From Candidatus Heimdallarchaeum aukensis (GTDB lineage Archaea; Asgardarchaeota; Heimdallarchaeia; Heimdallarchaeales; Heimdallarchaeaceae): a DNA stretch of 64,000 nucleotides. Every line of letters begins with the position of its first letter. Position 1 is the stretch's first letter. A program made the position numbers and the translations under genes. Positions 45,346 to 48,861 of the stretch are shown here, piece by piece. The notes beneath the pieces were generated by a model. It was not told the origin of the DNA, ran no database searches, and was given only the letters and a program-made list of their open reading frames with translations. The stretch is taken from the NCBI GenBank assembly GCA_021513695.1, contig CP084166.1, positions 1,888,001 to 1,952,000 on the forward strand, given 5' to 3'.

Positions 45346-48300
45346 ATGCCTAATAAGAAAAGAATCTTCGTATTTTTTATTATTCTGTTAGTACTTTCTT
45401 TCCTTGTTGGAGCACTACCTGCTTTAGTTTCAGAAGGAATCTTTCATTTAAATAGTACGTTAGTTATCATTCTTGCATTATTAAGCCCAATACTAAGCCC
45501 CTTTATTGAGCTTATTTACAGTAATATTGCAAATATAGTTAAAAAGGCCAACTATAACAGAAAAAGAATCGTTTCAATCTTAGAAGAAAATTATCGCAAT
45601 TTTATTCAACATTTAATTATTCCTTCTGCGAGAGGAAACACAGTTAATGAACTTTTACCTCTCCATTCAATAGAACGAAGAATTATGAGCGTTGAAGATT
45701 TGGAAAAATATGTCGAAAGGGGTGAGAAGAACGTTGATTCTTTTCCTTTTACACAAATTGTAGAAGAATTAAAAGGTTCACCTCCAAGATCACTCTCTTC
45801 TAGCCCCCTAAAATATATTATTACGGGAATCTTGAGAAAAAGAAAAAAAATAAAGAACGAGGGAAAAAGACTTCTCAAATATATTATTACAGGAATTCCC
45901 GGAGTAGGGAAGACTAGTTGTTCTTTTCAACTTGCCCTAAAACAGTTAGAAGCTTTCAATAACAAAGAATCAAATTATCTTCCTCTTTGGTTTGATATAG
46001 GTGAAAGAACTGGAAGAAAACAGCTAGGAAATGGTTTGAAATCATTACGTGATATACTTAAGGATTGTAGTACTCAGGTGTCAAAAGAAGAACAACTTAA
46101 AACCTATCTTGCTTTTCTTGAAGGTAAATCTGTTGATAATGTAGAATTACGTCTTTCTGATGATGATTTTGAAATCTTCTGGATTCTCGATGGATGGAAT
46201 GAAAACCCCATAAATGATATGATTACTTGGTTAAGCAATAGAGATACCATAACTATCTTTTCTAGAATGGGAGGAGAACCTTTAGGCTCATCTTCAATTT
46301 CTTTTGATAAATATACTCTTAGACCTTTTACTGTTCAAGATTCCATCTCTTTTCTAACTCAGTTTAATCATGTCCCTGAAAAATGTGCACGTATTATCGC
46401 TAGTTCACTAGATGAACATTATGGTGAAGAATTTCTTATTCCTTTCTTTCTAAATATTATAGTTTATAACTTATCAATACAAGGGATCAATGATACGGTT
46501 CAAACAATAAATTACTTCAACATCGAGCAGACTACTAAATTTAGTTTTTTAAAAGATTTTTTCTACTCTATACTCGAACGTGATTTTTCAAGTATAAATG
46601 CTCAACGTAAACTTAATGATCGACTAAAAAGACAAATTCTCTCTTGGTTCTCTCAAATTCTCTATTTTATAGTGAAAAAAAACTCTAATGTCCCTTCAAG
46701 GATGATTTTCAGAGAGGAAGATTTGCAAGACGCAATAGATAACGTACGTCCTCCAGAAATTGTGAGAACTGATCCTTTAGAAGTATTGACTGATTTATTA
46801 TTTATAGAAAAAGTACAAGATAACAGAGGGGAACGGACTATTTCTTATAGTTTAGTCCATGAACTATATTTAGACTTTTTTCTAGCTTATGCTATTAGTT
46901 CCTTTTGGGAAAAAAAAGAGAATGAGCCTAAATTTGATAACGATGGTCGAATGTATCTTCAGTGGATGGATAATGAATCTTTCGATGAAGTATGGTTTCT
47001 TATTGCTGATAAATGGAAAGATAGCAAAGAGAATAATTTTGAGAAATTTATTATAAAATGTCTTGAATTTAGAAGAGACAAGAAAGACAATCAAGATCTT
47101 ACACTACAACACATTTTAGACTATATTAGAAATAGAGTACTTTCCTATTCTTTTTTACATCCTAATAAACGAAGTATCTCTTCTCATCATAACATATGTT
47201 TATCTTTAAGACTTTTTCCTGGTGGAATTAAAGAATTAGATTTGAGTGAAACAAAAGTTACAGACATTAGTGCTCTTGTGCACTGCACAAATCTACGATA
47301 CTTAGATTTAAGTGGAACAAAAGTTACAGACATTAGTGCTCTTGTGCACTGCACAAATCTACAATACTTAGATTTAAGTGGAACAGACGTTCAAGACATT
47401 AGTCCTCTTTCGCACTGTCCGAATCTACAAAAAATATATTTAAGTGGAACAGATGTTCAAGACATTCGTCCTCTTTCAAGTTGTCCAAATCTACAAGTGC
47501 TGTATTTACTTGGAACACACGTTCAAGACATTAGTCCTCTTTCAAGTTGTCCAAATCTACAAGTGCTGTATTTACTTGGAACACACGTTCAAGACATTCG
47601 TCCTCTTTCAAGTTGTCCAAATCTACAAGTGCTGTATTTACTTGGAACACACGTTCAAGACATTCGTCCTCTTTCAAGTTGTCCAAATTTACAGAGATTA
47701 CGTTTAAGTGGAACAAAAGTTACAGACATTAGTGTTCTTAAAAACTGTCCGAATCTACAAGAATTAGATTTAAGCGATACAGACGTTCAAGACATTAGTC
47801 CTCTTTCAAGTTGTCTAAATCTACAAGAACTGTACTTACTTGCAACACACGTTCAAGACATTAATCCTCTTTCGCACTGTCCGAAACTACAAGTATTAGA
47901 TTTAAGGGGTACACACGTTCAAGACATTAATCCTCTTTCGCACTGTCCGAAACTACAAGTATTAGATTTACATGGAACAAAAGTTACAGACATTAGTGTT
48001 CTTAAAAACTGTCCGAATCTACAAGAATTAGATTTAAGTGGAACAAAAGTTACAGACATTAATCCTCTTTCAAGTTGTCTAAATCTACAAGCACTGTATT
48101 TAAGTGATACAGACGTTACAGACCTTAATCCTCTTTCAAGTTGTCTAAATCTACAAGCACTGTATTTAAGTGATACAGACGTTACAGACCTTAATCCTCT
48201 TTCAAGTTGTCTAAATCTACAAGCACTGTATTTAAGTGATACAGACGTTACAGACCTTAATCCTCTTTCGCACTGTCCGAAACTACAAGTATTAGATTTA

Positions 48301-48861
48301 CATGGAACAAAAGTTACAGACCTTAATCCTCTTTCAAGTTGTCCGAAACTACAAGTATTAGATTTACATGGAACAGACGTTCAAGACATTAGTCCTCTTG
48401 TAAGCTTACCCCATCTACAATACTTAGTTTTACGTGGAACAGACGTTCAAGACCTTAATCCTCTTTCGCACTGTCCGAAACTACAAGTATTAGATTTACA
48501 TGGAACAGACGTTCAAGACATTAGTCCTCTTGTAAGCTTGCCCCATCTACAATACTTAGATTTAAGTGGAACAGACGTTCACGATATTAGTGCTCTTTCA
48601 AGTTGTCCAAATTTACAGAGATTACGTTTAAGTGAAACAAAAGTTACAGACATTAGTGTTCTTGAAAACTGTCCAAATCTACAAGAATTAGTTTTACGTG
48701 GAATAGAAGGTGAATTTAATATTTCTCCTATCATTCGGCATAGACAATTATTAAATCTTGATTTTGATTCTTCACTACAGTTGCTTTGTCCTCGAGACCT
48801 TCAGGATAGTATTGAAGCTCCTGCTCTTCTCAAGATAAAAGATCAAATACAATTTTTCTAA
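45346..48861 (+). CDS. Membrane-anchored STAND NTPase (NACHT-like) with C-terminal leucine-rich repeats (NLR-like protein)
   Basis: Two N-terminal TM helices. Walker A ITGIPGVGKTS. Walker B-like IFWILDGWNE (hhhhDGxDE of NACHT). A helical/winged-helix region, then ~22 internalin-like 22-residue LRRs (CPNLQxLxLxGTxVxDIxPLSS). Confidence 0.85.
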   Translation: MPNKKRIFVFFIILLVLSFLVGALPALVSEGIFHLNSTLVIILALLSPILSPFIELIYSNIANIVKKANYNRKRIVSILEENYRNFIQHLIIPSARGNTVNELLPLHSIERRIMSVEDLEKYVERGEKNVDSFPFTQIVEELKGSPPRSLSSSPLKYIITGILRKRKKIKNEGKRLLKYIITGIPGVGKTSCSFQLALKQLEAFNNKESNYLPLWFDIGERTGRKQLGNGLKSLRDILKDCSTQVSKEEQLKTYLAFLEGKSVDNVELRLSDDDFEIFWILDGWNENPINDMITWLSNRDTITIFSRMGGEPLGSSSISFDKYTLRPFTVQDSISFLTQFNHVPEKCARIIASSLDEHYGEEFLIPFFLNIIVYNLSIQGINDTVQTINYFNIEQTTKFSFLKDFFYSILERDFSSINAQRKLNDRLKRQILSWFSQILYFIVKKNSNVPSRMIFREEDLQDAIDNVRPPEIVRTDPLEVLTDLLFIEKVQDNRGERTISYSLVHELYLDFFLAYAISSFWEKKENEPKFDNDGRMYLQWMDNESFDEVWFLIADKWKDSKENNFEKFIIKCLEFRRDKKDNQDLTLQHILDYIRNRVLSYSFLHPNKRSISSHHNICLSLRLFPGGIKELDLSETKVTDISALVHCTNLRYLDLSGTKVTDISALVHCTNLQYLDLSGTDVQDISPLSHCPNLQKIYLSGTDVQDIRPLSSCPNLQVLYLLGTHVQDISPLSSCPNLQVLYLLGTHVQDIRPLSSCPNLQVLYLLGTHVQDIRPLSSCPNLQRLRLSGTKVTDISVLKNCPNLQELDLSDTDVQDISPLSSCLNLQELYLLATHVQDINPLSHCPKLQVLDLRGTHVQDINPLSHCPKLQVLDLHGTKVTDISVLKNCPNLQELDLSGTKVTDINPLSSCLNLQALYLSDTDVTDLNPLSSCLNLQALYLSDTDVTDLNPLSSCLNLQALYLSDTDVTDLNPLSHCPKLQVLDLHGTKVTDLNPLSSCPKLQVLDLHGTDVQDISPLVSLPHLQYLVLRGTDVQDLNPLSHCPKLQVLDLHGTDVQDISPLVSLPHLQYLDLSGTDVHDISALSSCPNLQRLRLSETKVTDISVLENCPNLQELVLRGIEGEFNISPIIRHRQLLNLDFDSSLQLLCPRDLQDSIEAPALLKIKDQIQFF
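47218..48706 (+). repeat. Tandem 66-bp coding repeats (LRR units), several copies identical or near-identical at DNA level
   Basis: The unit gtgctgtatttacttggaacacacgttcaagacattcgtcctctttcaagttgtccaaatctacaa occurs three times in a row at 47497-47694. The unit ...caagttgtctaaatctacaagcactgtatttaagtgatacagacgttacagaccttaatcctctttc occurs three times at ~48070-48270. Confidence 0.85.

Follow-up and report, generated by a model that had tools for sequence, protein, structure and literature searches.

A protein-coding gene of Candidatus Heimdallarchaeum aukensis PM71 contains a long run of 66-bp tandem units, several of them identical at the nucleotide level. The locus raises the question of whether this likeness stems from protein constraint, from the assembly or from exchange of sequence between units, and of what kind of protein is affected. 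The stretch analysed (the window) comprises 64,000 nucleotides of contig CP084166.1 (3.08 Mb), positions 1,888,001 to 1,952,000, and all coordinates given here are those of the window. The gene (45346–48861, + strand) was identified from its open reading frame (ORF), an exact-sequence match and Pfam. Its product of 1171 amino acids (aa) is UJG39917.1, annotated as a ‘leucine-rich repeat domain-containing protein’, and combines a transmembrane (TM) part, a STAND-like nucleoside triphosphatase (NTPase) and leucine-rich repeats (LRRs). On balance it is probable that the LRRs form a recombining array of 22 units, carried by a membrane-anchored STAND NTPase that resembles the NOD-like receptors (NLRs) and is encoded on the mobile element HeimM2.

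Tandem Repeats Finder reports one strong array (47236–48707, period 66, 22.3 copies, score 1181), the sole one in the 64-kb window. Twelve occurrences of a 30-nt unit core were counted, where shuffles give an expectation of none, and no other copy of the array units was found within the window. The units lie in frame inside the ORF and each encodes an LRR of 22 residues, for example LDLSGTDVQDISPLSSCPNLQV. The 22 units (47236–48687, + strand; aa 631–1114; consensus LQxLxLxxTxVxDIxPLxxCxN) are followed by a degenerate 23rd unit and C-terminal cap (48688–48858, + strand; aa 1115–1171). Pfam recognizes the array as LRR_4 (333.8 bits, E=1e-102, cut-off 27) and LRR_8 (143 bits). An AlphaFold model of aa 599–1171 (predicted local distance difference test score, pLDDT, 92.4; predicted template modelling score, pTM, 0.88) places a strand and a short helix every 22 residues, and its nearest solved folds are the C. 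tepidum Roco LRR and internalin A/InlF (Foldseek E=1e-26 to 1e-28). Motif and period, and in the model the solenoid fold as well, are those of the 22-residue SDS22/internalin LRR class, and the array is predicted to be a genuine solenoid of 22 such repeats, the C-terminal module of UJG39917.1. The preliminary description of this DNA had taken the tract for near-identical 66-bp tandem units encoding an LRR array; array, frame and LRR translation are all borne out.

Across the 22 units, pairwise nucleotide identity averages 76.5% (range 59–100%), with 81.9% between adjacent units and 91–100% in the blocks formed by units 4–7, 14–16, 18/20 and 8/12/22. One tract of 211 nt (48059–48269, + strand; 3.2 copies) is perfectly periodic and includes an exact repeat of 145 nt at lag 66. 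Another (47468–47688, + strand; 3.3 copies) is near-perfect, with a single mismatch at 47533, and exists in a less uniform version in the second strain described below. Three identical copies had been noted at about 48070–48270, and those at 48070–48267 indeed show 0, 0 and 0 mismatches among them. A triplet at 47497–47694 had also been called 100% identical, but its copies differ by 1, 2 and 3 mismatches, the near-perfect tract being 47468–47688. It was likewise an overstatement that the other units differ only at codons for the variable LRR positions: in view of the mean identity, and with 41 of 66 sites and 13 of 22 codons varying among units, on concave and convex sides alike, the divergence is broader than that. 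Tandem Repeats Finder also reports a higher-order periodicity of 198 bp in the array. A regular super-repeat of three units was considered and rejected, the likeness of non-adjacent units (8/12/22, 18/20, 11/19) fitting scattered exchanges instead.

Any LRR needs its scaffold residues L, T, V, D, L and C, and codon use is skewed in this AT-rich genome (31% GC). It could be argued on these grounds that the units are old and independently evolving, and are kept alike merely by protein constraint and biased codon use. We give this explanation scarcely any credence, as the codon test has already disproved it. Among 3295 comparisons of aligned positions at which two units share an amino acid, the codon is also shared in 86%, whereas 42% would be expected from codon frequencies in 24 further ORFs of the window. 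Moreover, the fixed codons are minority ones: GAC, which makes up 20% of Asp codons, occupies its position in 21 of 22 units (p=4e-14), CTT (18% of Leu codons) in 22 of 22 (p=4e-17) and CTA (16% of Leu codons) in 20 of 22 (p=2e-14), and AGT (21% of its family) is likewise among the fixed codons. Mean identity in amino acids (64.8%) is below that in nucleotides, and identity among units is 74%, 78% and 78% at first, second and third codon positions, third positions being no more diverged than the others. Two further observations stand against constraint as the sole cause: LRR proteins elsewhere are at most 50% identical to the array, and the LRRs of two relatives of the gene, P0004 and P0006, lack a DNA-level repeat.

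The units also recombine. In a test of the pairwise homoplasy index (PHI) type, the value among units is 0.376, against 0.512±0.028 in permutations (p<0.0005), meaning that close sites are more mutually compatible than distant ones. In addition, 266 of the 595 informative site pairs are incompatible with a single tree. Taken together, these two results imply that the units are mosaics.

An independent allele allows the process to be seen between strains. The JGI metagenome contig 3300033149 Ga0366834_1056991 (7274 bp, here L001) is the only independent contig, giving two alleles in total, and aligns to window positions 42419–49696 at 99.4% identity. It represents a different strain, and not a re-threading of the same reads, because it holds unique array sequence as well as single-nucleotide differences in the flanks. 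The array, 1452 bp long, accounts for 30 of the 43 differences between the two (odds ratio 9.4, p=2e-12), a divergence of 2.1% compared with 0.22% outside; of the 13 outside, three are in the NTPase part (1890 nt). Within the array, 18.5 differences are non-synonymous and 10.5 synonymous. They take the form of patches in units 5–7 and 13–14 together with scattered single sites. At 47518–47533 (mid unit 5) the L001 allele lies within an 88-nt exact copy of unit 4. At 47610–47642, the junction of units 6 and 7, it is the window allele that lies within 63- and 89-nt exact copies of the preceding junctions, while the same junction in L001 has the unique sequence PLSHCPNLEE-LDLRGTH, absent from the window array. 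Units 13–16 read 13, 14, 14, 14-like in the window and 13, 13-like, 15, 16 in L001. These patches indicate that misaligned units have copied short tracts from one another by gene conversion, or have undergone paired unequal exchanges, and recent events of this kind explain the two ultra-homogeneous tracts of the window. Codon test, PHI-type test and strain comparison thus agree with the preliminary proposal that DNA identity exceeds protein constraint and so reflects recent duplication or conversion. By the same three lines of evidence, with the patches copied from neighbouring units standing for the last, the array is undergoing concerted evolution by repeat exchange.

Two expectations of the preliminary description fare less well. 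Repeat number was thought likely to vary between strains, but the window and L001 each hold 22 units, the gene measuring 3516 and 3515 nt respectively, with two alleles as the whole sample. The term ‘hypervariable’ is apt in so far as divergence is about nine-fold higher than in the flanks; what varies, however, is a small set of residue states that is reshuffled, not the product of open-ended mutation. Searches with the N-terminal 630 aa gave no further alleles or orthologues in GTDB species genomes, JGI metagenome contigs or IMG/VR, and the DNA patterns of the LRR units had no match in metagenome or viral contigs. Close LRR paralogues were considered as conversion donors and rejected, the best LRR matches elsewhere being no more than 50% identical and without a copy in the window. 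In L001, one T is missing from a T-run of LRR unit 16 (L001 5810/5811, window 48229), splitting the gene into ORFs of 962 and 217 aa; either L001 carries a pseudogene allele, or its assembly is in error at this point.

Assembly of the PM71 genome relied on paired-end 150-nt (PE150) reads and metaSPAdes at k<=99, with Nanopore scaffolding of DNA from multiple displacement amplification (MDA), as given in passages of Wu 2022 (PMC8813620), and short-read assemblies of highly conserved NLR repeats have proved unreliable in Podospora (PMC12222747). The near-identical tracts, or the copy number, might then be products of short-read mis-threading, with window and L001 as two wrong solutions. The perfect tract of 211 nt exceeds any 150-nt read, and the two assemblies differ exactly in their most repetitive tracts. 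We nevertheless regard such an artefact as improbable. Only one exact repeat in the array is longer than 99 nt, namely the 145-nt repeat inside 48059–48269; the exact runs in the 47468–47688 tract are 65 and 89 nt, resolvable at k=99. L001 assembles unambiguously because it has no exact repeat above 76 nt, and it too gives 22 units; its unique array sequence and its differences outside the array, including those in the NTPase part, are also at odds with mis-threading. The codon-level homogeneity, finally, spans all 22 units and not the perfect tracts alone. The caution, voiced in the preliminary description, that the array may be collapsed or expanded in this assembly therefore holds for one tract: at 48059–48269 the periodic sequence is longer than k and than the 150-nt reads, so that copy number there is not fixed by k-mers or single reads. 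The count of identical copies in this tract rests on paired-end or long-read information, and long-read proof is needed; the rest of the array is resolvable, with the same total in L001.

Variation is unevenly distributed along the unit. In the LxxLxLxxT register, L1, L6, T9, V11, D13 and L17 are invariant, and Q2, L4 and C20 nearly so. Position 3 is the most variable (2.3 bits), then positions 7 and 5, followed by positions 10, 15, 19, 8 and 18 (1.3–1.5 bits each) and 12, 22, 16 and 21 (1.1–1.2 bits each). With strands assigned from the predicted model, this variation maps to the strand/concave face and the ascending loop, and also to the convex side, and only 2–6 residue types occur per variable position. 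The ratio of non-synonymous to synonymous change (dN/dS) among units, a heuristic measure here as the units are recombining paralogues, is 0.10 for scaffold codons and 1.36 for variable codons; by class it is 1.72 at concave x positions, 0.88 at convex positions and 7.5 at loop positions 10 and 12, where there is almost no synonymous change and dS is tiny. Pooled over all codons it is 0.86, giving no global signal of positive selection among the units. The preliminary description had proposed computing this ratio at the exposed LRR positions: it exceeds one on the concave face and in the loop, but not on the convex side or in the pooled value, and the excess of amino-acid change by position class is suggestive only.

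The remainder of the protein resembles a STAND NTPase with a membrane N-terminus. Two hydrophobic helices (aa 7–28 and 39–58; 45364–45519, + strand) are the only segments above 1.6 in a Kyte-Doolittle window. They are flanked by basic residues (MPNKKR; KKANYNRKR), and since such residues flank both TM helices, the positive-inside rule makes it most likely that NTPase and LRRs are cytoplasmic. Between this N-terminus and the LRRs is an NTPase stretch of about 450 aa, a P-loop domain with Walker A (GIPGVGKTS, aa 183–191; 45892–45918, + strand; invariant G-P-G-G-K in the homologue alignment) and a Walker B-like motif (FWILDGWNE, aa 278–286; 46177–46203, + strand; invariant D and W). Further on, a region of the NTPase/helical module runs from FSRxGxEP, with a sensor-1-like Arg, to LIPFFL (46255–46455, + strand; invariant F and R, conserved LIPFFL). 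An alignment with 9 homologues retains GxPGxGK[TS], hhhhD(G/S)W(N/D)E, F(S/T)RP and LIPFFL, which we take to resemble the Walker A, Walker B, sensor-1 and winged-helix motifs of NACHT. UJG39917.1 has the Walker A (GxxxxGK[ST]) and Walker B (hhhhD plus DGxxE) expected of a STAND P-loop, and its order of parts, TM-NTPase-LRR, is tripartite. Assignment of the NTPase to a family by Pfam, NCBIfam, PHROGs, PADLOC and PDB sequence searches returned only sub-threshold or P-loop matches. A model of the NTPase made with AF2 (pLDDT 70) matches NAIP/NLRC4, NOD2, NLRP3 and Apaf-1 in Foldseek (E=5e-5 to 2e-4), and Avs3 is also among its fold matches. From motifs and models we read UJG39917.1 as a putative NLR-like STAND protein with a membrane N-terminus and a divergent, NACHT-like NTPase.

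Just 5′ of the P-loop there is a 22-aa (66-nt) insertion (45808–45873, + strand; direct repeat D8) that is missing from all homologues. It opens with a second copy of LKYIITGI and holds a run of eight A residues (about 45841–45848). This run has seven A in an independent Logan contig (L082, SRR15988958), whose product is truncated to 168 aa; either the difference stems from a sequencing error, or the run is an on/off site prone to slippage.

Relatives of the N-terminal 630 aa are few: one cluster of three sequences among 5.8 billion proteins, and 9 representatives among 1.84 billion. Their architectures include TIR-NTPase-LRR, DUF4062-NTPase, NTPase-LRR and an NTPase fused to a Ras/Roc GTPase, besides long X-NTPase-LRR proteins with sub-threshold NACHT or nSTAND3 signals; the homologues score 24.8 bits for NACHT and 19–22 bits for nSTAND3, all under the cut-off. 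A distant member, P0008, has a DNA-level LRR array of its own, of the 23-residue type (69 bp x 15, 75% matches; L085 9649–10685). As P0008 has an array and neither P0004 nor P0006 shows a DNA-level LRR repeat, such arrays are sporadic within the family. The TIR-NTPase-LRR relative P0004 adjoins an MmeI-type methyltransferase/restriction gene (L084 2170–5748).

We propose that misaligned 66-bp units swap tracts of tens of nucleotides through gene conversion, slippage or unequal exchange. Each exchange overwrites a unit with the sequence of a neighbour; this keeps the units alike at the DNA level and shuffles anew the few residue states found at exposed positions, while copy number can hold constant. 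In analogy with STAND/NLR proteins, the LRRs would act as a ligand-sensing and autoinhibitory domain that keeps the NTPase inactive, binding of a trigger would lead to NTP-dependent oligomerisation, and the TM N-terminus would then act on the membrane as effector; the reshuffling might be used to change specificity. A sensor or immune role for UJG39917.1 is accordingly only putative. The ‘sensor domain’ of the preliminary description fits the architecture, with LRRs placed C-terminal to TM and STAND-like NTPase parts and with TIR, DUF4062 and Roc relatives, and is a putative assignment drawn from that architecture. The fullest version of the proposal, a mobile-element-borne NLR-like receptor that re-tunes its recognition surface by intra-array conversion among LRR cassettes, we hold to be doubtful.

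Several results weigh against a recombining array on an NLR-like STAND NTPase. Only two alleles are available, L001 being frameshifted in the array and the window coming from a short-read assembly, and some of their differences could be assembly noise; copy-number variation between them (22 vs 22) was not seen. No Pfam STAND cut-off is reached, the best match being nSTAND3 at 17.1 bits, against a cut-off of 27.2 (E=0.0046, P-loop only). There is no match to a PADLOC defence model other than PDC-S41 (E=0.0085, 12 bits), again on the P-loop. TM-scores for the NTPase fold are 0.2–0.38, and the match to ORC/Cdc6 equals or surpasses those to the NLRs. Pooled dN/dS does not exceed one, and variation is as high at convex as at concave positions.

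Some of the same facts would suit neutral concerted evolution, in which recombination is a by-product and the LRRs are a fixed scaffold or adaptor with no immune role, for example a Roco-like module for signalling or protein docking that serves the mobile element. Equal copy number in both strains, the narrow choice of 2–6 states per variable position, the pooled dN/dS with convex positions varying like concave ones, and the missing defence-model match are all compatible with it, as are the relative fused to a Ras/Roc GTPase and the Roco LRR as best structural match of the array. Such neutrality is possible, if somewhat unlikely: divergence in the array is mostly amino-acid changing, dN/dS is above one at strand and loop x positions, relatives bear TIR and DUF4062 N-termini and one of them adjoins a restriction-modification gene, and the gene sits on a mobile element at an integration hotspot. 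A different proposal, that of an internalin-like surface protein whose LRRs lie outside the cell for adhesion or contact with a host or partner and vary antigenically, takes up the ‘internalin-like’ label used in passages of Wu 2022 (PMC8813620), the LRR type and predicted fold, which match Listeria internalin A/InlF, and the hydrophobic segments at the N-terminus. The protein itself makes this very improbable. An NTPase with intact Walker A and B motifs stands between N-terminus and LRRs, the two TM helices, bordered by basic residues at either end, would leave the rest in the cytoplasm, and relatives carry cytoplasmic TIR or Roc modules. Internalins are secreted or wall-anchored and have an N-cap, an IR domain and 6–16 diverged repeats. 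Pfam detects no internalin cap, IR domain or wall anchor in UJG39917.1, which thus lacks the marks of a surface internalin; instead it has 22 near-uniform repeats behind an NTPase, in a predicted cytoplasmic location.

The position of the gene is known in part from earlier work. In Wu 2022 (PMC8813620), the DNA that separates the single 16S gene from tRNA-Arg(TCT) is presented as the mobile element HeimM2, with a size of 8 kb and a LAGLIDADG homologue nearby. The ‘internalin-like LRR peptide’ of HeimM2 is the published label of the UJG39917.1 gene, and a CRISPR spacer matches the ‘repeat peptide-encoding gene’ of the element (Fig. 3c of that paper). The same source reports that intragenic tandem repeats were mis-called by the CRISPR finder MinCED and removed by hand; the present array of 66-bp units, each half conserved and half variable, might itself pass for a CRISPR array in another assembly. 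Both the gene and its repetitive character had thus been published before and are not new. The NTPase and TM modules, the codon homogeneity, the conversion patches and the 139-nt repeats described next were not found in the passages of that paper considered here. What is newly added is modest: an NLR-like architecture, allelic evidence for conversion, and one tract that needs long reads.

The gene lies within a segment of about 6.65 kb bracketed by direct repeats of about 139 nt. The left copy (42511–42649, + strand), an att-like border, consists of the last 21 nt or so of the 16S gene and about 118 nt downstream; the right copy (49160–49294, + strand) is 87–96% identical and forms the right border. 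The pair resembles an att-type duplication of the target, which would set narrower borders for the 8-kb element. Besides the LRR gene, the segment holds three ORFs without database matches: these upstream ORFs have no Pfam, PHROG or PADLOC match. Neither an integrase nor a reverse transcriptase was detected among the element ORFs, the only recognised domain being that of the LAGLIDADG ORF (49497–50117), which lies downstream of the right repeat and outside the bounded segment. Directly upstream of the LRR gene, 45009–45161 (+ strand) resembles the pre-LRR segment at 46985–47137 (EVWFL[IM]AD[KR]WKD...; 76% DNA identity, and 47% aa identity over 53 aa to aa 548–600), and appears to be what is left of a paralogous gene or of an older copy.

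The element abuts the 3′ end of the archaeal 16S rRNA gene (41054–42531), the single 16S gene of the genome, and no 23S gene follows it within the window (unlinked rRNA operon). A partial copy of the 16S 3′ end, inverted and 75% complementary (42481–42532 vs 42718–42769), is found 185 nt downstream and may be the scar of another integration at the same site. The genes of the window are those of an Asgard archaeon (unsplit RpoB, Cdc6/Orc1, AglB/STT3, RPA, PolD small subunit), and RpoB is nearest, at 80–82%, to Asgard metagenome-assembled genomes among GTDB representatives. Two tRNA genes with apparent introns (23036–23148 and 50620–50712) are both found by Rfam; ARAGORN misses the first and gives a four-base anticodon for the second, which is tRNA-Arg TCT according to Wu 2022 (PMC8813620).

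Several known systems share features with this locus. Closest in behaviour of the repeats are the fungal NLRs with high internal conservation (HIC), among them Podospora HET-E, HET-D and NWD (Paoletti 2007, PMC1805685; Dyrka 2014, PMC4986451; Ament-Velasquez 2025, PMC12222747), which show concerted evolution, hypervariable surface sites and repeat-number polymorphism, and whose repeats are WD40, ANK or TPR, never LRR (PMC4986451). Repeat exchange, variation at a few exposed positions and trouble in short-read assembly are common to both. They differ in that amino-acid identity among Podospora units is about 85%, compared with a mean of 65% in the present array, where only sub-blocks reach 95–100%; fungal loci vary in repeat number, whereas both alleles here have 22; and the host here is an archaeon and the location a mobile element. 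In its evolutionary behaviour the array is of a known kind, in a new host. With internalin A/InlF and the C. tepidum Roco LRR, the array shares the 22-residue period and a short strand followed by a 3-10/alpha turn (InlF/InlA superpose on the LRR model with root-mean-square deviations of 1.3–2.7 A over 290–350 columns; consensus LxxLxLxxTxVxDIxPL), but UJG39917.1, unlike Roco proteins, has no Roc-COR module. Like bNACHT (Kibby 2023) and Avs STAND ATPases, it would unite effector, NTPase and repeat sensor in a single protein, and it has relatives with TIR. Unlike those proteins, it reaches no PADLOC or Pfam NACHT/NB-ARC threshold and belongs to a small family (the 9 representatives in 1.84 billion), and an anti-virus role is putative.

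The finding flags three things of practical use: a tract, within a reference genome labelled ‘complete’, for which short reads cannot settle the copy number, a STAND family that escapes current Pfam and PADLOC thresholds, and a repeat array of the kind mis-called by CRISPR finders. Receptors of the NLR type with LRR sensors hold a central place in the immunity of plants and animals, and where they came from is a matter of debate. In fungal NLRs, near-identical sensor repeats can serve as built-in diversification, and fungi do so without LRR versions. An NTPase-LRR protein from Heimdallarchaeia, close archaeal relatives of eukaryotes, bears the same DNA-level signature, and the comparison of two strains catches conversion from unit to unit directly. 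NLR and TIR-NLR systems are reported to be present or enriched in Asgard genomes (Leao 2024, PMC11291487). If UJG39917.1 is an immune sensor, this strategy of diversification would extend to archaea and to LRRs; the protein would then be an LRR counterpart of the fungal HIC NLRs, missed by current models of defence finders, and self-diversifying NTPase-LRR immune receptors would have existed on the archaeal side of eukaryogenesis.

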